Below, piece after piece: positions 1,408-9,595 of a stretch of DNA of 9,595 nt (within the stretch, counting starts at the first letter, position 1; each line of letters begins with the position of its first letter). This stretch comes from a virus (Duplodnaviria > Heunggongvirae > Uroviricota > Caudoviricetes): positions 1 through 9,595 of the IMG/VR virus record IMGVR_UViG_2541047688_000006, one strand, 5' to 3'. Position numbers and translations under genes: made by a program. The notes beneath the pieces are model-generated. The model saw nothing but the letters and a program-made list of their open reading frames with translations, was not told the origin of the DNA and made no database searches.

Positions 1408-1998
1408 ATGTCTCGAATTTTTGCTTACTGTCGGATATCAACGCTGGATCAGACCACCGAAAATCAACGCCGGGAAATCGAAAGTGCAGGTTTTAAAATC
1501 AAACCTCAGCAAATAATCGAAGAACACATTAGCGGCTCAGCAGCAACCAGTGAGCGTCCTGGTTTTAACCGGTTGCTTGCTCGCCTGAAATGTGGTGATC
1601 AATTGATTGTGACAAAACTGGATCGCCTTGGTTGTAATGCAATGGATATCAGGAAAACAGTGGAACAACTGACCGAAACAGGTATCAGAGTGCATTGCTT
1701 AGCATTGGGGGGCATTGACCTGACCAGTCCAACAGGAAAAATGATGATGCAAGTAATTTCAGCAGTCGCTGAATTTGAACGAGACCTTTTACTTGAACGC
1801 ACTCATTCCGGGATAGTAAGAGCCCGGGGCGCAGGGAAACGTTTTGGTCGACCACCTGTGTTAAATGAAGAACAGAAACAGGTGGTATTCGAACGGATTA
1901 AGTCAGGTGTAAGTATAAGTGCCATTGCCCGGGAATTCAAAACCTCGCGGCAAACCATTTTAAGAGCCAAAGCAAAACTTCAGACACCTGACATATAA
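1408..1998 (+). CDS. Serine recombinase (resolvase / DNA-invertase family), 196 aa
   Basis: N-terminal catalytic motif [11 protein letters not shown] (Ser11 as the presumptive nucleophile, compare Y-x-R-V-S-T-x-x-Q in Hin/Gin/gamma-delta resolvase). KLDRLGCN matches the KLDRLGRS motif except for Cys76. Central ...[14 protein letters not shown]... and GRFGRPP motifs and a C-terminal HTH ([18 protein letters not shown]) are present. It is convergent with the tail-fibre operon, as pin is in K-12 cryptic prophages. Confidence 0.85.
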
Positions 1999-2095: not shown

Positions 2096-2215
2096 CTACG
2101 GCAGTGCTGGCCATTCAATATCCTGTGCAGTTGACGTATCAACACGGTTCAGCAACACCCGATACTTCTTCCAGGCTTCCCGCAACGAGGTTTCTTCCTC
2201 CGTTGCATATACAGC
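2096..2215 (-). pseudogene. tfa: Remnant of the 3' end of a lambda-type tail fibre assembly gene (tfa), about 35-39 codons with no start
   Basis: Minus-strand translation of 2215..2099 gives [39 protein letters not shown], matching the recalled C-terminus of lambda Tfa (...[39 protein letters not shown]). An in-frame stop lies immediately upstream at 2216-2218 and there is no start codon or N-terminal Tfa sequence. Confidence 0.7.
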
Positions 2216-2225
2216 TCACCTTTTT

Positions 2226-2519
2226 TCACCCACGATTAACCAACAGCCAGACCAGCAGACACGCCACCACCGGCACAGCAAAATCCATCAGGCTTGCCAC
2301 ATCCCACGCACGCGGATCAAAACCGCCCCACCACGGCATATTCATTCGCTTGCCATGCCCGAACATTTCAATCCAGCGATATTCTGCCTGGGTATGTTCA
2401 CGCGCAATGAAGAACGTACAACCAGCTATCGCCCCGTAAGCCCAGTTTCCGGTAAAAAGACCAACCAGTACCTGCGCAGCCACAGCACAAAGTGCATGAA
2501 GGAAAGGTGTTATATCCAT
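2226..2519 (-). CDS. Small integral membrane protein, 97 aa, hypothetical
   Basis: ATG at 2519 preceded by a strong SD AGGAGG (4-nt spacer) directly after the stop of the upstream gene. Two long hydrophobic segments (about residues 5-37 and 75-94) flank a Trp/Arg-rich loop (REHTQAEYRWIEMFGHGKRMNMPWWGGFDPRAWD). No family recognised. Confidence 0.6.
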   Translation of the reverse strand: MDITPFLHALCAVAAQVLVGLFTGNWAYGAIAGCTFFIAREHTQAEYRWIEMFGHGKRMNMPWWGGFDPRAWDVASLMDFAVPVVACLLVWLLVNRG

Positions 2520-2529
2520 TACGCCTCCT

Positions 2530-3234
2530 TTATCCGATATCGCTTCGGGAAACGGATAACAACTTTAATTCTGACTCAAGTTCATCAACTCTTTCAGTCA
2601 GCTTCTGGATATGGTGAATCAGTGGAACAACCAGACGTTCGTACATTACACCTTCGGCAACAAGGCCATTGCTGGAAATGGTTTCCGGTGCATCATCTTC
2701 GTTGGCTGGTCGCCAGTGAACAAACTGAGGGGCAATTTCTCCTACTTCCTCGGCAATCAATCCATAGAATCCCCAGTCACGCCTGTCATTTTCGCATTGC
2801 GACCTGTACCACACATGGCGCATCCTGAAAATGAGATCGGCGTGCTCTGAATCTATCGTCTCTACTGAATGTTTATAGCGGATAGACGATGTTGACCGCA
2901 GCACAGACGAAATTGCAGGGTCAGGATTAAGATAAAGATTTGCCGCCGCTGTAGTTGTGCCCAATCCCCATAAATAAAACGCTTCACGGACAGTCAGCGG
3001 GTAAAAATCTCCGCCATAACGACCACTTTCCAGATCGTTCACTTCCACTTTGTTTTTCAGCTTATTATCCACTTCTGTTTTTGTGTATCTGGTACTGATA
3101 TCCTGCTTTGCACTGTCCATATCAGTCTGAAGCGTTGATACTTTTACGTTAATTGAGGAAATATCTTCCTTTGCCTTACTGACATCTCCCTTTAGCGTTT
3201 TGATGTCATCAGGAATTACTGTCGATGTAGCCAT
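2530..3234 (-). CDS. Tail-fibre-like protein with C-terminal S74-type intramolecular chaperone (self-cleaving) domain, 234 aa
   Basis: ATG at 3234 with SD GAGGAAG overlapping the upstream stop. The N-terminal ~70 aa are coiled-coil-like (K/D/S-rich heptads). Residues ~116-225 (SSIRYKHSVETIDSEHADLIFRMRHVWYR...DWGFYGLIAEEVGEIAPQFV...NGLVAEGVMYERLVVPLIHHIQKLTERVDELESELK) follow the recalled Peptidase_S74 / endosialidase-chaperone pattern (SDxRxK...v.Y.w...GfIAQEV.E.lPelV...L.vdY..LvplLieaiKeL), including a Ser116...Lys121 dyad candidate. Confidence 0.65.
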   Translation of the reverse strand: MATSTVIPDDIKTLKGDVSKAKEDISSINVKVSTLQTDMDSAKQDISTRYTKTEVDNKLKNKVEVNDLESGRYGGDFYPLTVREAFYLWGLGTTTAAANLYLNPDPAISSVLRSTSSIRYKHSVETIDSEHADLIFRMRHVWYRSQCENDRRDWGFYGLIAEEVGEIAPQFVHWRPANEDDAPETISSNGLVAEGVMYERLVVPLIHHIQKLTERVDELESELKLLSVSRSDIG

Positions 3235-3243
3235 TTTTCTTCC

Positions 3244-3525
3244 TCACATCCAGCTACGGAGTTGATGCTCAACAGCAACCGCGTGTTCATCGAATAATGA
3301 CGATATTTGCGAATCATTAATGATGCGCACATTTACAAAATATCCGTCCTCCTTAACACATACCGGCTCGCCATCTTCAGTAAGTTCTCCGGTTTCTTTG
3401 TACACATTACCTATCACGTCAATAAGAATATCATCCTGCATCGACTCGTCATCATAATAGCCAATGCTCTCCATAAAGGCCGAAAAGTCGGCCCTGTCTG
3501 CAAATTTGAGTGTTAAATCTTTCAT
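3244..3525 (-). CDS. Small highly acidic protein, 93 aa, translationally coupled to stf; hypothetical (possible fibre chaperone/accessory)
   Basis: Its ATG (3525-3523) overlaps the stf stop TGA (3524-3522) as ATGA. The translation has 21 Asp+Glu against 7 Lys+Arg. Coding-like composition; no family recognised. Confidence 0.6.
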   Translation of the reverse strand: MKDLTLKFADRADFSAFMESIGYYDDESMQDDILIDVIGNVYKETGELTEDGEPVCVKEDGYFVNVRIINDSQISSLFDEHAVAVEHQLRSWM

Positions 3526-5918
3526 TTAATACTCTCCCCCATTTGCGCATCAGTTAATTCTTTATGCCAGAGACGAAGATTTCTCAAATGGCCGAATAGA
3601 TGACGAGTTCCCGATGTGGCTTGACCTCCAATTCGAATAAAGGTCCGTGTTTTTACGCCCGTCCACTCCGTTTTCATAGTTTTAGTAGCCTCACCGTTAG
3701 AAACTACTCGTTTAGTACCATCAGAATAAATATTAAAACCACCAATGAATTTTCGAACATCAGCTCGACCAGCAAACACACTAGAAACGTAAGTACTTGT
3801 CGACGCTTTATAAGTTTGCATATAAAGCTGACCGTAATATTTCTCAGTTGTGTTAAAAGCGTATGTAATTGACTCAATAGGTGGCACACCAGAAAAATCA
3901 AAAATACGCGGTGCTACATTAGGAGGAATATCGCCCCAATTTCTATTAACCTCGACAAGACACGTAAGCGGTCTATTATAGATATTATTTTCAGTTGGGA
4001 TCGTCACCATATCACTGGAGCGGGTTGCGGGTGCAGTTGTCGTAATAACAAAAGATGAAGCACATCCGCCGTTTTCAAATTGTGGTGTTGCAAGGTAAAT
4101 ATAATCTCCCGCTTCAGTTATACCACCTTTTTTCGGCGCATACTGAATCATTGCGCCAATTAAGGTTTCACCTTCAACAGCTTCTATAGTTGCCTCATAG
4201 AAAATCCACCCTGTAACCGGATCTTTAGTTGCAGTAGCTGCTATTCTATTGGCTGCCCCGCCAGTTTTTTCTATTATCAGAGTTCCGAAAGTTAAATAAG
4301 CATCTCCTAAAAATGTATAAACCGACCCATCGTATTTTTCAAAACGCAAACGACAACGAAGACCATCAGGAGCTTTAACCCTGCATGAAACAGTGCAATA
4401 CTTATTATCGCCACTAACATCAATCCCCCGGGATGCACTGCATGTATGCAGACTAAGTGCAGATGATTGTCCTGTCATATTATCTTTTGTTCGCATTTTG
4501 GCATATGAAAAACCAAATTCATCAACACCATTATTAGTTTTATCGATATTGCTGGTACTCGTCCATTCAGCGGGAGTATTGGATTTAACAAAATAGTTAG
4601 TGCGCTGTCCTTCAATCAATAAACCTTCTTTTTCAAATCGTGGCTCATCAATTTTAGCAACACTAAATACGCCTGATTTATTGATATATGTGGCAGTTGA
4701 TGCGCGTTTAAACTTAACAACCTTGTCGCCAGGCATCGTTATTTCATCATCACCAATAACAATTTTTTTATATGACGGCGAAAAGCCCGTAATCATATCC
4801 AGTGAATCGTTAAACGGTATCCACACATCAGGCAGTGGCTGTAAGACATATTTATACGGCTCTGCTGCCTGACTTGCATACTCTCTGGCTGCGTCTTCAC
4901 TTGCTTTAGCTGCTGTCTGGCTTGCTGCCGATGCTTTCGCCGAGTTCGCCGCTGCAGTCTCGCTTGTCTTTGCATTGGTTTCACTGGTTTTTGCTGCTTT
5001 TTGACTGTTGGCTGATGCAGTGGCAGAAGCAGCCGCCGCGCTTGCAGAACCAGCTGCAGCACTCTCGCTTTGGGCTGCTGCATCCTGACTGTTTTTCGCC
5101 GCAGTTTCGCTGGCTTTGGCATTCGTTTCGCTGGTCTTCGCTGCCGTCTGGCTGGACTTTGCGTTAGTTTCACTCGTCTTCGCAGCTTTCTGGCTGTTAG
5201 CCGCAGCAGTTGCTGATCCAGCTGCTGAAGTCGCAGAACCGGCTGCCGCGCTCTCGCTTTGGGCTGCTGCAACCTGGCTGTTTTTTGCCGCAGTTTCACT
5301 GGCTTTGGCATTCGTTTCGCTGGTTTTCGCTGCCGTCTGGCTGGACTTTGCGTTGGTTTCGCTCGTCTTTGCGGCTGTCTCGCTATTTTTCGCGTTGGTT
5401 TCTGATTTTTTGGCTGCTGTCGCGGAGTTTGCCGATGCAGTCTTTGAGGTCGCTGCCGCCTGTGCACTATTAGCTGCATTCGTTTCTGAGGTTTTCGCCG
5501 CGTTCTTCGATGATGCCGCTGCAGTTTCGGATTTCTTTGCCGCCGCTGCGCTCTGAGAGGCGGCTTCGGCGTTGCGTACCACTTCTTCCACCATTGCCTC
5601 AAAACGACGCAATGCCTCCGGCATGACATCATCTTCCGTCATGGCACCGAGAAAATCATTCAGCGTACCTGATCTGGAACCTTCATAGACGGTAATGGTC
5701 CCGGCATGTGAAGGCGGAAAACCTTCAACCAGCAGGGTGACGCTGTACTGACCATGCTCAACATCCATGCTGTAACGTCCGGCTTCATCCGGATTTTCAG
5801 AGGCCACCGTGTTCACCACCACCGTGCTGCTGGTTCGTCTGGCCTTCAGCACAATGGTGCAGTTCTGTACTGGTTTTCCTGTGCCATCTTTAAGCACGCC
5901 AGAAATTTTTACTGTCAT
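3522..5918 (-). CDS. stf: Side tail fibre protein (Stf), 798 aa, mosaic: lambda-like N-terminus, Ala-rich repeat shaft, non-lambda C-terminal jelly-roll-like tip
   Basis: The N-terminus MTVKISGVLKDGTGKPVQNCTI...GFPPSHAGTITVYE...TLNDFL matches recalled lambda Stf (MAVKISGVLKDGTGKPVQNCTIQLKA...). An Ala/Ser/Thr/Lys-rich repeat follows. The C-terminal ~460 aa are unlike lambda and end in ...IGGQATSGTRHLFGHLRNLRLWHKELTDAQ, resembling the C-terminal signature of concanavalin-A-like / LamG lectin folds. GC drops by eye near ~4870. Confidence 0.9.
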   Translation of the reverse strand: MTVKISGVLKDGTGKPVQNCTIVLKARRTSSTVVVNTVASENPDEAGRYSMDVEHGQYSVTLLVEGFPPSHAGTITVYEGSRSGTLNDFLGAMTEDDVMPEALRRFEAMVEEVVRNAEAASQSAAAAKKSETAAASSKNAAKTSETNAANSAQAAATSKTASANSATAAKKSETNAKNSETAAKTSETNAKSSQTAAKTSETNAKASETAAKNSQVAAAQSESAAAGSATSAAGSATAAANSQKAAKTSETNAKSSQTAAKTSETNAKASETAAKNSQDAAAQSESAAAGSASAAAASATASANSQKAAKTSETNAKTSETAAANSAKASAASQTAAKASEDAAREYASQAAEPYKYVLQPLPDVWIPFNDSLDMITGFSPSYKKIVIGDDEITMPGDKVVKFKRASTATYINKSGVFSVAKIDEPRFEKEGLLIEGQRTNYFVKSNTPAEWTSTSNIDKTNNGVDEFGFSYAKMRTKDNMTGQSSALSLHTCSASRGIDVSGDNKYCTVSCRVKAPDGLRCRLRFEKYDGSVYTFLGDAYLTFGTLIIEKTGGAANRIAATATKDPVTGWIFYEATIEAVEGETLIGAMIQYAPKKGGITEAGDYIYLATPQFENGGCASSFVITTTAPATRSSDMVTIPTENNIYNRPLTCLVEVNRNWGDIPPNVAPRIFDFSGVPPIESITYAFNTTEKYYGQLYMQTYKASTSTYVSSVFAGRADVRKFIGGFNIYSDGTKRVVSNGEATKTMKTEWTGVKTRTFIRIGGQATSGTRHLFGHLRNLRLWHKELTDAQMGESIK
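4928..5567 (-). repeat. In-frame tandem repeat inside stf, period 189 bp (63 aa), about 3 copies of decreasing identity
   Basis: 5101-5289 and 5290-5478 begin with near-identical ~80 nt (gcagtttcRctggctttggcattcgtttcgctggtYttcgctgccgtctggctggactttgcgtt); a further diverged copy spans ~4912-5100. At protein level the unit AAKTSETNAKSSQTAAKTSETNAKASETAAKNSQ.AAAQSESAAAGSA... repeats. It also creates the spurious long ORFs on other frames. Confidence 0.8.
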
Positions 5919-5931
5919 ACTTTTCCACCAA

Positions 5932-5966
5932 TAAAAAAAGCCCGCAGCAGTGACGCCACGGGCTTC
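5932..5966 (-). terminator. Putative rho-independent terminator between lom and stf (minus strand)
   Basis: On the minus strand, AAGCCCG (5965-5959) pairs with CGGGCTT (5944-5938) around a 14-nt loop, followed by a U-run (plus-strand A7 at 5933-5939). It lies immediately upstream of the stf RBS. Confidence 0.45.
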
Positions 5967-6069: not shown

Positions 6070-6669
6070 TCAGAAACGGTATCCGATACCAACAATAAAT
6101 GCATCCGTTCGCCAGTCGCCACTACCGGAACCTTCATAAGCAAGGTCAATGGTCACGGATTCGGTCGGATTAAACTGCACGCCAGCCCCCCACGCCAGAG
6201 ACGTGTTGCTGTGGCGACCGTCATCACTTCCGGTCAGCACATCGTGCGTTTTCCCCTTGTTGTCAGTTACGCGGAGATAATCCCCGGAGAAAGTCGACAC
6301 ACGGCTGTAAGCCACACCCACCATCGCATACGCGCTGAACCATTCATTCACGCGTACAGACGGCCCCGCCATCACGCTGAACCAGCGGTTACGCACGGAA
6401 TCTTCATGCCAGCGGGTATCGCTGTAGCGCGTTTTTTGCTCATCCTCAGCATTGGCATAACTGAAGGACGTAATCAGCCCCAGCGCGTCCGTAAACTCAT
6501 AACGGTATTTCACGTTAATCCCGTTCAGATCATCACTACCGGGAACGTTCGTCGAGGCATGGAGATACCCCGCGCTCAGCGTGGACTGATGTTCTGCTGC
6601 ACTCGCTGGCGTAGCAGCGGCGACCTGCCAGACTACTGCGGACAAAATAACAGCACATAATTTACGCAT
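6070..6669 (-). CDS. lom: Lom outer membrane protein (Ail/Lom/PagC/OmpX family 8-strand beta-barrel), 199 aa
   Basis: ATG at 6669 with SD GAGAGG. Signal peptide MRKLCAVILSAVVWQVAAATPASA. The body (HQSTLSAGYLHA...NGINVKYRYEFTD...RYSDTRWHEDSVRNRWFSVMAGPSVRVNEWFSAYAM...GIGYRF) closely matches recalled lambda Lom. Confidence 0.9.
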   Translation of the reverse strand: MRKLCAVILSAVVWQVAAATPASAAEHQSTLSAGYLHASTNVPGSDDLNGINVKYRYEFTDALGLITSFSYANAEDEQKTRYSDTRWHEDSVRNRWFSVMAGPSVRVNEWFSAYAMVGVAYSRVSTFSGDYLRVTDNKGKTHDVLTGSDDGRHSNTSLAWGAGVQFNPTESVTIDLAYEGSGSGDWRTDAFIVGIGYRF

Positions 6670-6736: not shown

Positions 6737-9595
6737 TCAGCTAATCGTGATGCCTGCAGTGGCTTTCTTCATCACAACAACCAGCAAATCGCTGATACTT
6801 GCTGTGGGATACCAGCCATTTACCCACCATGCTGATACAGAAAACTCCAGCGTCATGTCGCCGCGACCAGCAGGCATATCAATAACACCACTGTAAACCA
6901 GCGTATTATCCATCGCGGTACGGTTATAAATTTCAGCACCGTTTTTCTTCACTATCAGGCGGCATGACGAATAAGTATCGCTGTTCTCCCGCTCATGTCT
7001 GGCACCGCTGAAAGCCACCGCCGGAATAACAATCTGCCGGTTAAACGGCTGATCGTCATAAACCCTGACGGTAATGGTTCCTGATGGCCAACGCTTCGGT
7101 GCACGGGAGTCACGAGGGAAAGCCTTACCCACTGTTTTAACGAGATCGCCTTCAATCTGGTTTGCAGACAGTTTCCCTCTGATGACACAGTTCTTGTTAA
7201 TGGTGACATTATTGAGCGTGCCGGTATTCGCCGTGATGGCTCCACTGATATCCGCATTGCGGGCTGTCAGCCTGCCATCCGGCGTCAGGGAAAACGTCGG
7301 AGGATTGCCGGATGACGTGATGCTCACCGCAAACAGTCGCTTCAGGAACACGTCGTTCATGAACAGCTGATTCCCCTGCGCCACAAACAGCGGCGTGGTG
7401 TTGCCGTTCTCCGGGGTAATCATCGCAATGCGATCGGCCTGCAGCAGAATGTTACTCAGGGTCTGACCATCAACATCCTCAATCCCCGCACCAATCCCGG
7501 CCACATAGGGAATACCGTTTTTTGTTTTCTGCACCTTCAGCATATACATGGCATTCAGCTCATTGCGCGTGTCTGACTGAACCCGCTGGATTTGCTGTAT
7601 GGTCACGGCCTGGTCACCCAGCTTTTTATCCGTGGTCGAGGTAATTTCACTCCCTTTTTTATCCACGTACTGGCGGACCTGTGCTATCTGTCGGGCGTTT
7701 TCTGACTGCCCCTGGCTGACAGTCTGTGAGATTTCACTGCTCACCCGGTCCACTTTCTGGCTCACCTGCGCGATGGCCAGTGTCTGATCCTCATTCTTTT
7801 TCGCAACCAGCTGCGTGAGGCTGTTTTCCGCCTTCCCGATTTTCCGGGTCACTTCTGCGATATCCGTGTCCATCCGCTGACGGATATCTTCTTCCAGTTG
7901 CGTGACCTCCGTACGCAGCGCTGAAGCATCAATGCGCTCTTTCAGTGCCTGACCCAGAAGCGTCTCATCTATCAGCCCCCGGAAAATTTCCAGATACCCT
8001 TCACCATCATTGCTGGGCTGCCCGCTGGCTTCCACAAAAGCAGATTTTCCCACCAGGTTGACGCTTCGCACGTAAAACCAGAAATCCGTCCCCGGCTTAA
8101 TCCGGCTCCCCTGGACAGTCCACTGACTGCCGGTCCCCAGATAACGGGCAGATTTTTCCACCTGTGCTGTGTTCGTGATGCGTTTTTCTGAGAACCAGAA
8201 TTCAAACTGTACCGTCGGGTCATACACCGCAAGACGCGGGACCGCCGTTATCTGAAAATACCCCGGCGTCAGCTCAATGGTGGCGGGTTTTGCAGGTGCG
8301 TTAATCCGGAACGATACCGACGCCGGATCGCCCTGCTGTCCCCGGGCATTTACCGCCCGGACCGTCAGCGTGTAACGCCCCAGCGCCAGCTGCCTGAAGC
8401 GGTAAGTGGTTTCCGCCGTCCGGGCCGTGCTGACCAGCCGCTCACTGCCGTCATCCGCTGTTACGGTCAGACGGAGCAGGAAGCTCACGCCCTTCACCAC
8501 CTTCGGCGTGTCCCAGCGCGCCAGCACCTGATATTCCCCGCTGTCTGCGGTGACTTCGGCGGTCAGGTGCTGCACCGCTGGCGGCGTGACACCATTCACC
8601 GTGCCGCTCTGGTCGCCGTCAAAGTGCGCTCCGTTATCCACGATGGCCTCTTTTTCCGGTACATGCTGCACGGCGGTGATGGCATACGCACCGTCATCGT
8701 TCTCCCGGATACTCACACAGCGGAACAGGCGCTGGCGCAGCGTCGGCAGCTTCAGCCCCCACACGCTGTATTCGGCAACGCCGTCAGGAATACGGCTCAC
8801 TTTCACCTTCACGCCGTCGGTGACGGACTGGACCTCCACGCTGACCGGATTCCCACTTCCGTCAACCAGGCTTATCAGCGTGGTGCCGGAGGATGGCAGC
8901 GTGATTTCACGGTCGAGCGTCAGTGTCCGCGTCTGGCTGTTCACCGCCAGCACGCGCCCGCCGATGCTGATACCCGCATAGTCATCATCACAGATTTCAA
9001 TGACATCGCCCGGTACATGGCGAAGCCCTTCTGCACCCACGCTGAAGTCCACGGTCTGCGTTTCCAGCAGCTCCGTTTTAATCAGCCACAGCCCGGCGCG
9101 GTGTGCCTGCCCCCGGCTGGTACAGCCAAAGGCATCCATCTTCGTGACGTTACGACCGTAACGGAGAATGGCCTGCGTGTCCTCCACAAGCTCTGTCGCC
9201 GTCTCCCAGCCGTTATTCGGGTCAATCCAGTTCACCTCAACGGCATTATGACGGTCCTTCAGGGCGCTGAAGCTGTAGCGGAACGGCGCGCCATCATCCG
9301 GCATCACCACATTACTGCGGTTATAGGTCCACACCTTATCCGATGGCCGGTCCTGCACGAACGTCAGCGTCTGCCCGTTCCATACCGGCATACAGCGCAT
9401 CGCCGAGCAGAAATCACTGAGCACATCCCACGCCTTGCGCTGCGTGGTCAGGTACGCATTACAGGTGATACGCGGTTCCGTGCCACCAAAGCCATCCGGC
9501 ACCGACTGGTCGCAATTCTGGCCGATGACATACAGCGCCCATTTATCCACATCCGCCGCACCAAGACGTTTCCCCATGCCGTAGCGCGGATGGGT
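6737..9595 (-). CDS. J: Tail tip attachment / host specificity protein J, C-terminal ~950 codons (5' partial; gene continues beyond window end)
   Basis: The frame is open from the window edge ([26 protein letters not shown]...) to the stop at 6737-6739. Size, position immediately upstream of lom, and the C-terminal ...[16 protein letters not shown] region fit a lambda J-like central tail fibre. The first in-window ATG is at 9577, but the true start is off-window. Confidence 0.9.

Follow-up and report, generated by a model that had tools for sequence, protein, structure and literature searches.

Intramolecular chaperone domains of the S74 type, such as those of the K1F endosialidase and T5 pb1, end tail spikes or fibres of about 1,000 to 1,400 aa. 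What, then, is such a domain doing at the end of a protein of 234 aa? The question is raised by a gene found in a tailed-phage sequence (IMG/VR record IMGVR_UViG_2541047688_000006; the whole 9,595-nt stretch analysed is here called the window), which a sequence-only reading had described as a stand-alone mini-fibre, unusually small for its kind and perhaps an adaptor or decoy. Which E. coli strains are within reach of a phage is determined by its side tail fibres, which engineers exchange to retarget phages and phage-derived delivery particles.

As that reading had proposed, the mini-fibre stands alone as a gene, with its own ATG and a GAGGA ribosome-binding site that overlaps the TGA stop codon of the preceding gene, p93 (Table 1). 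Between stf and p93 there is an overlap of 4 nt, between p93 and the mini-fibre a gap of 9 nt and between the mini-fibre and p97 one of 10 nt, and no promoter-like site was found on the minus strand inside the cassette. To judge from this layout, the mini-fibre is the third gene of a presumably co-transcribed cassette made of Stf, p93, and the mini-fibre.

Table 1. Features of the fibre cassette and its surroundings (nucleotide positions in the window)
Feature	Position	Strand	Basis or remark
Tail fibre assembly gene (tfa), 3′ remnant; relic of an earlier tip module	2097..2207	-	RefSeq annotation, colinear E. coli 7/2
Pin-type serine invertase, intact	1408..1998	+	Pfam Resolvase, HTH_7
p97, 97-aa predicted membrane protein, last cassette gene in lambdoid phages	2226..2519	-	Hydropathy
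Mini-fibre gene (third-slot fibre protein, C-terminal S74)	2530..3234	-	ORF list, 234 aa, ATG start
Stop codon of the mini-fibre gene	2530-2532	-	
S74 intramolecular chaperone domain, codons 116-234	2533..2889	-	Pfam, phmmer, Foldseek on AlphaFold2 model, dyad conservation
Codon of His140, within the S74 domain	2815-2817	-	
Codon of Lys121, within the S74 domain	2872-2874	-	
Codon of Ser116, within the S74 domain	2887-2889	-	
Small distal tip segment, codons 66-115, just before the predicted cleavage site, includes Val82	2890..3039	-	
Heptad-repeat helical stalk, codons 9-62	3049..3210	-	AlphaFold2 helices 9-47 and 52-60; heptad register
Conserved N-terminal peptide MATSTVIPDDIKTLK, codons 1-15	3190..3234	-	Motif starts other third-slot proteins
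GAGGA ribosome-binding site	3241..3245	-	Read from sequence; 6 nt upstream of the mini-fibre ATG
p93, acidic 93-aa protein	3244..3525	-	phrog_1361; always follows immediately on a fibre gene of this type
Stf side tail fibre, 798 aa	3522..5918	-	Pfam PF08400, NCBIfam NF048003

A Pfam and NCBIfam scan of the mini-fibre gave S74 as its sole match and placed it in no Tfa family. Peptidase_S74 (PF13884) scored 24.7 bits (E 2.9e-5), narrowly above the Pfam gathering cut-off of 22 bits, with residues 116 to 172 on profile positions 1 to 57 of 58; close relatives of the protein scored 23 to 36 bits. The phmmer matches were the C terminus of DT57C LtfA (8hqz, E 7.5e-7) and the MyRF ICA domain (7dc3), and a profile search of the PDB with the family alignment yielded nothing beyond 8hqz. 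In the AlphaFold2 model, pLDDT was about 80 to 90 across residues 131 to 230, and the top Foldseek match was again MyRF ICA 7dc3 (probability 1.00, E 3e-5). The mini-fibre resembles the K1F endosialidase and T5 pb1 in domain family, Ser-x4-Lys motif, and C-terminal position; its best fold match is a eukaryotic domain, and its structural match to the endosialidase chaperone 3gw6 is weak, as is that to the GA-1 chaperone 3gud (both E ~0.1).

The candidate catalytic residues, Ser116 and Lys121, lie 5 residues apart at PF13884 positions 1 and 6, in a motif that aligns with T-S-G-I-E-Y-K of DT57C LtfA. Across 42 homologues, K121 is invariant and S116 is ≥90% conserved; the GFYGLIAEEV stretch occupies residues 156 to 165. 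Both the S74 domain and the dyad claimed from the letters of the sequence are therefore borne out, and by sequence comparison the mini-fibre carries a true S74 chaperone domain with a conserved putative Ser/Lys dyad. The further claim that the domain is intact is weakened at residue 140, where this copy has His and 41 of 42 family members have Pro.

The part preceding the domain had been described as Gly-rich, which it is not (5.2% Gly); instead, clean heptads of the pattern D-[IV]-x-x-[LAI]-x-x are followed by a segment of ~50 residues. The heptad number differs among alleles, the model is confident for the stalk (pLDDT 85 to 91 for residues 11 to 40), and identity to the Drexlerviridae alleles is only ~22% there. 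The tip segment is ~60% conserved between lambdoid and Drexlerviridae (T1-like) alleles and is homologous to the stretch that precedes the S74 domain in one-piece long fibres; in the AlphaFold2 monomer it is not confidently modelled (pLDDT <50), and no known receptor-binding domain family was detected in it with Pfam or NCBIfam. The computed masses are 12.6 kDa for residues 1 to 115 and 13.8 kDa for the released domain, so that the predicted mature part is indeed as short as had been supposed.

To place the gene among its relatives, we compared cassettes across phages. The order Stf, p93, third gene was found in ten phages of five lineages, comprising the lambdoid PhiR49_1, 2G7b, PhiR63_1, IdasGreatGrand, and PhiR55_1, together with KarlJaspers (Drexlerviridae), ESCO3 and VogelGryff (Queuovirinae), KarlBarth (Dhillonvirus), and IrisVonRoten (T5-like). 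The third slot holds exchangeable alleles of 98 to 574 aa, most of them with a C-terminal S74 domain. What had seemed unusually small is the commonest allele of this slot, which is conserved in at least five phage lineages. The short allele is carried, nearly always at full length, by 742 of the 5,426 complete E. coli genomes (~14%) and should be annotated as a common conserved prophage gene and not as an anomaly. Its architecture of 221 to 234 aa is kept in lytic Drexlerviridae (225 aa in KarlJaspers, as annotated) as well as in plaque-forming lambdoid phages, one of which, PhiR49_1, has a gene 98% identical to the mini-fibre, and dN/dS is ~0.2 to 0.3 in both the mature part and the chaperone. 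The 234-aa mini-fibre is a genuine gene, neither an oddity nor a broken fragment.

That the ORF is a 3′ fragment of a longer fibre gene, which was to refute the first reading, is true only in terms of descent: residues ~50 to 223 are homologous to long-fibre ends (59% identical to the C-terminal 182 aa of the 735-aa Citrobacter freundii protein WP_418224550.1), but what the window holds is a separate conserved gene under purifying selection, found also in lytic phages. WP_418224550.1 is a one-piece Stf, the N-terminal 200 aa of which are 73% identical to the Stf of the window. In it one chain, lacking both a lectin head and a separate docking peptide, carries the two ends that the window splits over two genes.

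The Stf of the window consists of a phage_tail_N attachment domain, an Ala-rich repeat shaft, a conserved block (residues 361 to 440), and a variable lectin-like head, so that its C-terminal end is a lectin-like jelly-roll domain and not an S74-type tip segment. The head is the hypervariable part (17 to 65% identity). p93, without a Pfam or NCBIfam match, has homologues in 181 phage records of several lineages, and its AlphaFold2 model (26 close homologues) reached a mean pLDDT of 48. p97 is 94 to 98% identical in phage 21, 2G7b, PhiR63_1, and PhiR49_1, irrespective of the third gene. In phage 21, Stf, p93, and p97 occur with the third slot empty, and the third-slot subunit is therefore dispensable for this fibre type. 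The mini-fibre is 92 to 93% identical across cassettes whose Stf heads are only ~40 to 54% identical, and similar Stf heads occur with unrelated third genes; at the level of sequence, then, mini-fibre and Stf head assort independently. Three units that can be exchanged independently seem to make up the cassette, namely the lectin-headed shaft, a small conserved protein, and a tip subunit that plugs in.

All third-slot proteins open with the motif M-[AV]-T-x-T-x-I-P-x-D-I-x-x-L-K and diverge after it. It is seen in lambdoid phages, Drexlerviridae, Queuovirinae, Dhillonvirus, and Tequintavirus, and the MATSTVIPDDIKTLK of the mini-fibre aligns with eight other third-slot proteins of 98 to 574 aa. 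The 345-aa alleles match the mini-fibre over these 15 residues, with 20 of the first 24 positions in common. We infer that the peptide acts as a docking tag. Two places on Stf considered as its socket, the block at 361 to 440 and the last 38 residues, could not be assigned as such since phage 21, where the third gene is lacking, conserves them just as well, and no feature of Stf or p93 specific to the presence of the third gene was identified.

The same modular fibre-tip arrangement is already seen in several E. coli phage groups. In Bas32 (IrisVonRoten, Tequintavirus), Gp22, Gp23, and Gp24 follow each other as do Stf, p93, and the mini-fibre. Gp22 is 46% identical to the Stf of the window over 767 aa and has a lectin-like head, Gp23 is a p93 homologue (39% identical), and Gp24 starts with MVTKTVIPTDITKLK and, like the mini-fibre, ends in an S74 chaperone domain. 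In the model of Humolli et al. 2025 (PMC11990801), Gp24 is a T-shaped distal fibre on the proximal fibre Gp22; this attachment is an AlphaFold-Multimer prediction and not an experiment. Gp24 differs in having 574 aa and two predicted receptor-binding domains, whereas the mini-fibre has only its heptad stalk and the ~50-residue tip.

An experimentally supported analogue of the proposed two-part arrangement may be seen in DT57C and DT571/2, with a branched L-shaped fibre of LtfA and LtfB, both ending in S74 (PMC4728585, PMC10713586). LtfB is positioned by a conserved 45-residue N terminus (Golomidova et al. 2016, PMC4728585; Ayala et al. 2023, PMC10713586) and is a full-size receptor-binding fibre, whose role in host range was shown genetically (PMC4728585, PMC10713586). 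The likeness lies in a second protein that is held on the first by a short N terminus and ends in an autocleavable S74 domain. It does not extend to the peptide itself, a motif search having returned no T5-like LtfB match, nor to gene order, with no p93-like gene between ltfA and ltfB as described and p93 in between in the window. The RBPseg atlas also mentions a class with a coiled-coil N terminus and an S74 C terminus. For the short allele itself, we found in the papers searched no direct evidence of its presence in virions, cleavage, or binding to Stf, no virion proteomics of a carrier phage, and no trans-chaperone test of S74.

Together, we consider the mini-fibre to be probably the shortest of the common allelic forms of a distal subunit, tip or branch, in a side tail fibre made of two parts. 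Its gene would be read from the late operon together with stf and p93. The C-terminal chaperone (residues 116 to 234) would bring three chains together and template the folding of the segment ~66 to 115, after which Ser116/Lys121-dependent autoproteolysis would remove it. The product would be a trimer of 12.6-kDa chains, each with the MATSTVIPDDIKTLK peptide, a stalk of about six heptads, and the tip of ~50 residues. By its N-terminal peptide this stub would dock onto the lectin-headed Stf, possibly with p93, and would either add a small conserved binding tip or complete and cap the distal end of Stf. Trimerization, cleavage, docking, incorporation into virions, and binding of any receptor are inferences of this model.

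In other phages, receptor-binding fibres of 345 to 574 aa occupy the third slot. The conserved slot, an N terminus shared with larger distal fibres (its 15 residues match Bas32 Gp24), and a tip and chaperone that elsewhere end conventional one-piece fibres favour a conventional minimal distal fibre over the adaptor or decoy function first suggested.

The protein could also be a structural blank that fills the docking site on Stf, perhaps stabilizing the fibre, and binds no receptor, recognition being left to the Stf head and J. Stalk and cleavage site are no more than ~50 residues apart in each chain, the tip is ~60% conserved against 17 to 65% in the Stf head, and the protein stays nearly constant across cassettes with differing heads; moreover, DT57C LtfA appeared unstable without LtfB (PMC4728585). 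We nevertheless hold a pure cap to be unlikely. Tip and chaperone end one-piece long fibres that have no other recognized (Pfam) distal domain, which suggests that the tip can be a working end, and phage 21, with no third gene, does without any cap.

A chaperone that acts in trans on the assembly of Stf, remaining outside the virion, is what GenBank implies with "putative lateral tail fiber chaperone" on the Drexlerviridae and Queuovirinae homologues (KarlJaspers gp35, PeterMerian, and VogelGryff gp24), and we find it quite improbable. The protein is small, is encoded after a fibre gene, the usual place of Tfa-type chaperones, and is accessory, as its absence from phage 21 indicates. However, the label derives from the Pfam name "Chaperone of endosialidase," and the accessible text of the BASEL paper gives no experiment behind it. 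S74 domains are described as intramolecular, folding the chain that carries them (PMC11990801, PMC4728585), and the jelly-roll end of Stf is not the kind of tip segment that precedes them. The Tfa, gpU, and gp38 assembly proteins, whose genes are likewise small and follow immediately on that of the fibre, act in trans and have no sequence relationship to the mini-fibre, which matches no Tfa family and has its S74 domain on its own chain. One nearly constant mini-fibre with such divergent Stf heads, and similar heads paired with unrelated third genes, are unlike a dedicated chaperone and client. Purifying selection on the mature part and an N terminus common to a 574-aa fibre with two receptor-binding domains also count against it. 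Short homologues are thus labelled from a domain name, where the evidence favours a structural fibre subunit.

That the gene is a decaying remnant, the 3′ part of a once longer fibre gene that stays open by chance in a cryptic prophage and has no function, would agree with its homology to long-fibre C termini (residues 50 to 223), the fibre relics nearby (the tfa remnant and the orphan pin), the frameshifts in neighbouring stf and pin of E. coli 7/2, and His140 at a nearly invariant Pro, but is very remote for a gene with its own conserved N-terminal module and ribosome-binding site, full length in nearly all of the 742 genomes, maintained in lytic and plaque-forming phages, with a dN/dS of 0.2 to 0.3, and accompanied in the window by intact stf, p93, p97, and pin (ORF list).

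Returning to the distal subunit, a bolder version of it is possible, if doubtful. The 15-residue peptide might serve the lectin-headed lateral fibres of at least five E. coli phage lineages as a universal plug that fits a socket on them. Whole tip subunits could then be exchanged by recombination just behind the plug, and the smallest load would be the 234-aa protein, as a blank closing the socket or as a 12-kDa tip bringing a conserved second receptor specificity. In that case, the mini-fibre would be the smallest natural unit for loading a foreign tip on a side tail fibre; confirmation of the peptide as a docking element would make the 234-aa protein the simplest natural template for attaching new tips.

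Successive replacement of tip modules had also been proposed for this region, and the remains fit: a tfa 3′ remnant, the sole tfa-like sequence within the window, and an intact pin lie just downstream. No suitable inverted repeats were found around any fibre segment, and pin therefore no longer switches the cassette. The colinear stretch of E. coli 7/2, whose neighbouring stf and pin are frameshifted, differs from the window at 2 of 1,601 nt. A difference in the fibre module between PhiR49_1 and PhiR49_1_star was considered and rejected, as the 4 differences in the region compared (32764-45270) lie just upstream of or within the 5′ end of J.

Besides His140, this copy of the mini-fibre has Val82 in place of Gly. 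None of the 5,426 complete E. coli genomes has G82V or P140H (best match, 99.0% identity over 195 nt), which first suggested decay or a sequencing error. The exact protein is found, though, at two chromosomal sites on at least 24 contigs of public draft assemblies and is therefore a natural lineage variant, in which His140 could impair the folding of this copy.

The window comes from a lambdoid E. coli prophage and spans the end that encodes its tail fibres, where the side tail fibre gene (stf) is followed by genes for a 93-aa protein (p93), the 234-aa mini-fibre, and a 97-aa membrane protein (p97). These genes are tightly packed, with a 4-nt overlap between stf and p93 and gaps of 9 and 10 nt that separate the mini-fibre from p93 and p97, respectively. 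No promoter-like site was found on the cassette strand within the four fibre-cassette genes, and the mini-fibre starts at an ATG with GAGGA 6 nt upstream. A strong terminator-like hairpin (13 pairs, then a T run) stands between lom and stf; in phage 21, a terminator is annotated directly ahead of stf. Expression of the cassette would need late-operon antitermination.

Features of the tail-fibre region, with the variant positions of this copy
Feature	Position (nt)	Strand	Remark
J	6737-9577	-	
lom	6070-6669	-	
Terminator-like hairpin	5937-5966	-	
stf	3522-5918	-	798 aa
p93 gene	3244-3525	-	93 aa
Mini-fibre gene	2530-3234	-	234 aa
P140H	2816		Pro in 41/42 relatives
G82V	2990		conserved residue
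p97 gene	2226-2519	-	97 aa, past it the tfa remnant
Intact Pin-type serine invertase, adjoining 3' tfa remnant	1408-2207	+ (invertase)	
YnaE-family gene		+	
dinI-like gene		+	

The S74 domain of the mini-fibre passed the Pfam PF13884 cut-off narrowly (24.7 versus 22 bits), with residues 116 to 172 aligned to profile positions 1 to 57. A phmmer search of the PDB matched the C terminus of LtfA from DT57C and the ICA domain of MyRF; the latter was also the top Foldseek match (prob 1.00), followed by the much weaker endosialidase and GA-1 chaperones (E of ca. 0.1). Among 42 homologues, K121 was invariant and S116 conserved in at least 90%, the two lying 5 residues apart at profile positions 1 and 6. 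The observation made in the sequence-only reading, a short protein with an S74 domain and a Ser116/Lys121 dyad, was therefore confirmed, but its interpretation was only partly supported. Neither is the N-terminal part Gly-rich, as had been proposed: with only 5.2% Gly, it consists of a clean heptad array and then a segment of ca. 50 residues. The AlphaFold2 model was confident for the N-terminal helix (9 to 47) and residues ca. 125 to 233 and not for residues 63 to 115; low confidence there would be expected of a segment that folds only upon trimerization.

The gene position after stf and p93 (here, the third slot) holds proteins of 221 to 234 aa in the window and its close relatives, 345 to 351 aa in 2G7b, PhiR63_1, and ESCO3, 384 to 388 aa in VogelGryff, and 574 aa in IrisVonRoten. 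Phage 21 has no third gene, and in KarlBarth (3770-4649 of sequence L009) the slot contains two annotated ORFs, one of 98 aa with a putative docking motif and one of 196 aa, and no S74 domain; this represents either a gene that has been split or another type of tip with the same N-terminal peptide. Every third-slot protein opens with the peptide M-[AV]-T-x-T-x-I-P-x-D-I-x-x-L-K. The 345-aa alleles match the window protein over the first 15 residues (20 of the first 24 positions) and are then unrelated to it until the S74 domain. A shared start with a divergent remainder is the usual signature of a subunit whose attachment end is constrained and whose body can be exchanged.

Humolli et al. 2025 (PMC11990801) describe Gp24 of IrisVonRoten as a distal fibre of T shape that has two receptor-binding domains and ends in an intramolecular chaperone; AlphaFold-Multimer places it on the proximal fibre Gp22, whose C-terminal domain is lectin-like. 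Gp22 is 46% identical to the window Stf over 767 aa, Gp23 is a p93 homologue, and Gp24 begins with MVTKTVIPTDITKLK; therefore, the window ORF occupies the Gp24 slot. The best experimentally supported analogue is the branched LtfA/LtfB fibre of DT57C, in which the second protein has an S74 domain at its C terminus, is held in position by a conserved N terminus, and determines host range (PMC4728585; PMC10713586). The mini-fibre is probably the minimal allele of the distal subunit that plugs into side tail fibres built of two parts, and offers the simplest natural example of a putative docking peptide joined to a tip-and-chaperone unit.

When 1.84 billion representative proteins were searched exhaustively with HMMER, 2,788 relatives were retrieved. 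Residues ca. 49 to 234 of the mini-fibre are 51 to 61% identical to the last ca. 180 residues of one-piece fibres of 539 to 1,243 aa, whose N-terminal parts are of the phage_tail_N, P2-type collar, or T4 gp34/gp37 type. In one of these, a Citrobacter freundii prophage Stf (735 aa), the first 200 residues are 73% identical to the window Stf and the last 182 are 59% identical to the mini-fibre; thus, the two genes of the window correspond to opposite ends of what is one polypeptide in another prophage. By homology, the tip (residues ca. 66 to 115) appears to be a standard fibre end, which explains why the PHROG match fell at the end of a profile 1,385 columns long. Only in this evolutionary sense is the mini-fibre a fragment of a longer fibre. 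Met-started S74 proteins of 180 to 270 aa with other N termini are common in metagenomes, so its small size is not unique.

A fibre gene followed by p93 and then by a third gene was found in five lineages: lambdoid phages, Drexlerviridae (KarlJaspers), Queuovirinae (ESCO3 and VogelGryff), Dhillonvirus (KarlBarth), and Tequintavirus (IrisVonRoten). The cassette fibre proteins have in common the shaft-to-head junction LPDVWIPFNDSL...EPRFE..GLLIEGQRTN, and the lectin-like head is their most variable part. Homologues of p93 occurred in 181 phage records, which range from lambdoid phages to T5-like and rV5-like ones, and in every case the gene immediately followed a fibre gene that has the LPDVWIPFNDSL...GLLIEGQRTN junction. 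This acidic protein (pI 4.1), present in phage 21 without a third gene, belongs to no Pfam or NCBIfam family, and its AF2 model was unusable (pLDDT 48). Stf residues ca. 116 to 345 form a long Ala-rich repeat shaft of KTSETNAK-type units, variable in length among Stf proteins that are nearly identical in other respects; a frameshift within this region splits the stf of E. coli 7/2.

That the mini-fibre acts in trans as a chaperone for Stf, as the name "putative lateral tail fiber chaperone" given to BASEL homologues in GenBank would imply, seems to us improbable. The label reflects the Pfam name, and the available passages of the BASEL paper contain no experiment behind it. The mini-fibres of the window, IdasGreatGrand, and PhiR55_1 are 92 to 93% identical but accompany Stf heads with only 54% and ca. 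40% identity and p93 with 80% and 35%; in 2G7b and VogelGryff, heads with 77% identity are paired with unrelated third genes (23%). Besides, the C-terminal end of Stf is a self-contained lectin-like domain, not a segment templated by S74 domains, and phage 21 has the same fibre type without any third gene. Relative to the Drexlerviridae alleles, the mini-fibre tip is conserved, whereas the Stf head is the fast-evolving element; a conserved tip would be compatible both with a small tip that binds a conserved ligand and with a cap that serves Stf structurally. Recognizing the mini-fibre as a distal subunit corrects the "chaperone" annotation.

The mini-fibre is neither a one-off oddity nor a disrupted fragment: the gene was carried by 742 of the 5,426 complete E. 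coli genomes searched, by plaque-forming lambdoid phages (98% identical in PhiR49_1, 92% in IdasGreatGrand, and 90% in PhiR55_1), and, as homologues with 55 to 60% identity, by ca. 45 Drexlerviridae, and dN/dS among lambdoid copies was 0.2 to 0.3 in the predicted mature part (residues 1 to 115) and chaperone alike. Full-length short alleles span 221 to 269 aa, differing by whole heptads. Identity to the Drexlerviridae alleles was ca. 70% in the N-terminal peptide, 22% in the heptad stalk, 60% in the tip, and 67% in the chaperone core. In three longer short-allele homologues (P0009, P0011, and P0016), the unit IP-x-D-[IV]-x-x-L-K is present twice, by tandem duplication of the N-terminal motif inside the heptad stalk.

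The p97 gene, which closes the lambdoid cassette, encodes a predicted membrane protein hydrophobic at residues 1 to 38 and 73 to 95, 94 to 98% identical whether next to a 234-aa allele, a 345-aa allele, or no third gene (phage 21). It is absent from the lytic-phage versions of the cassette, its PHROG entry gives no function, and it could be a lysogen-expressed moron or exclusion factor. No inverted repeats are left near the invertase and tfa remnant, which look like what is left of an earlier, invertible Stf/Tfa tip that was displaced by the present cassette.

A comparison with E. coli 7/2 over 1,601 nt showed only two substitutions, both G:C to T:A, non-synonymous, and within the mini-fibre gene (G82V and P140H). 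Neither was found among the 5,426 complete genomes; the exact window protein is encoded by at least 24 contigs of draft assemblies, which place it at two different chromosomal sites, and is therefore a real lineage variant.
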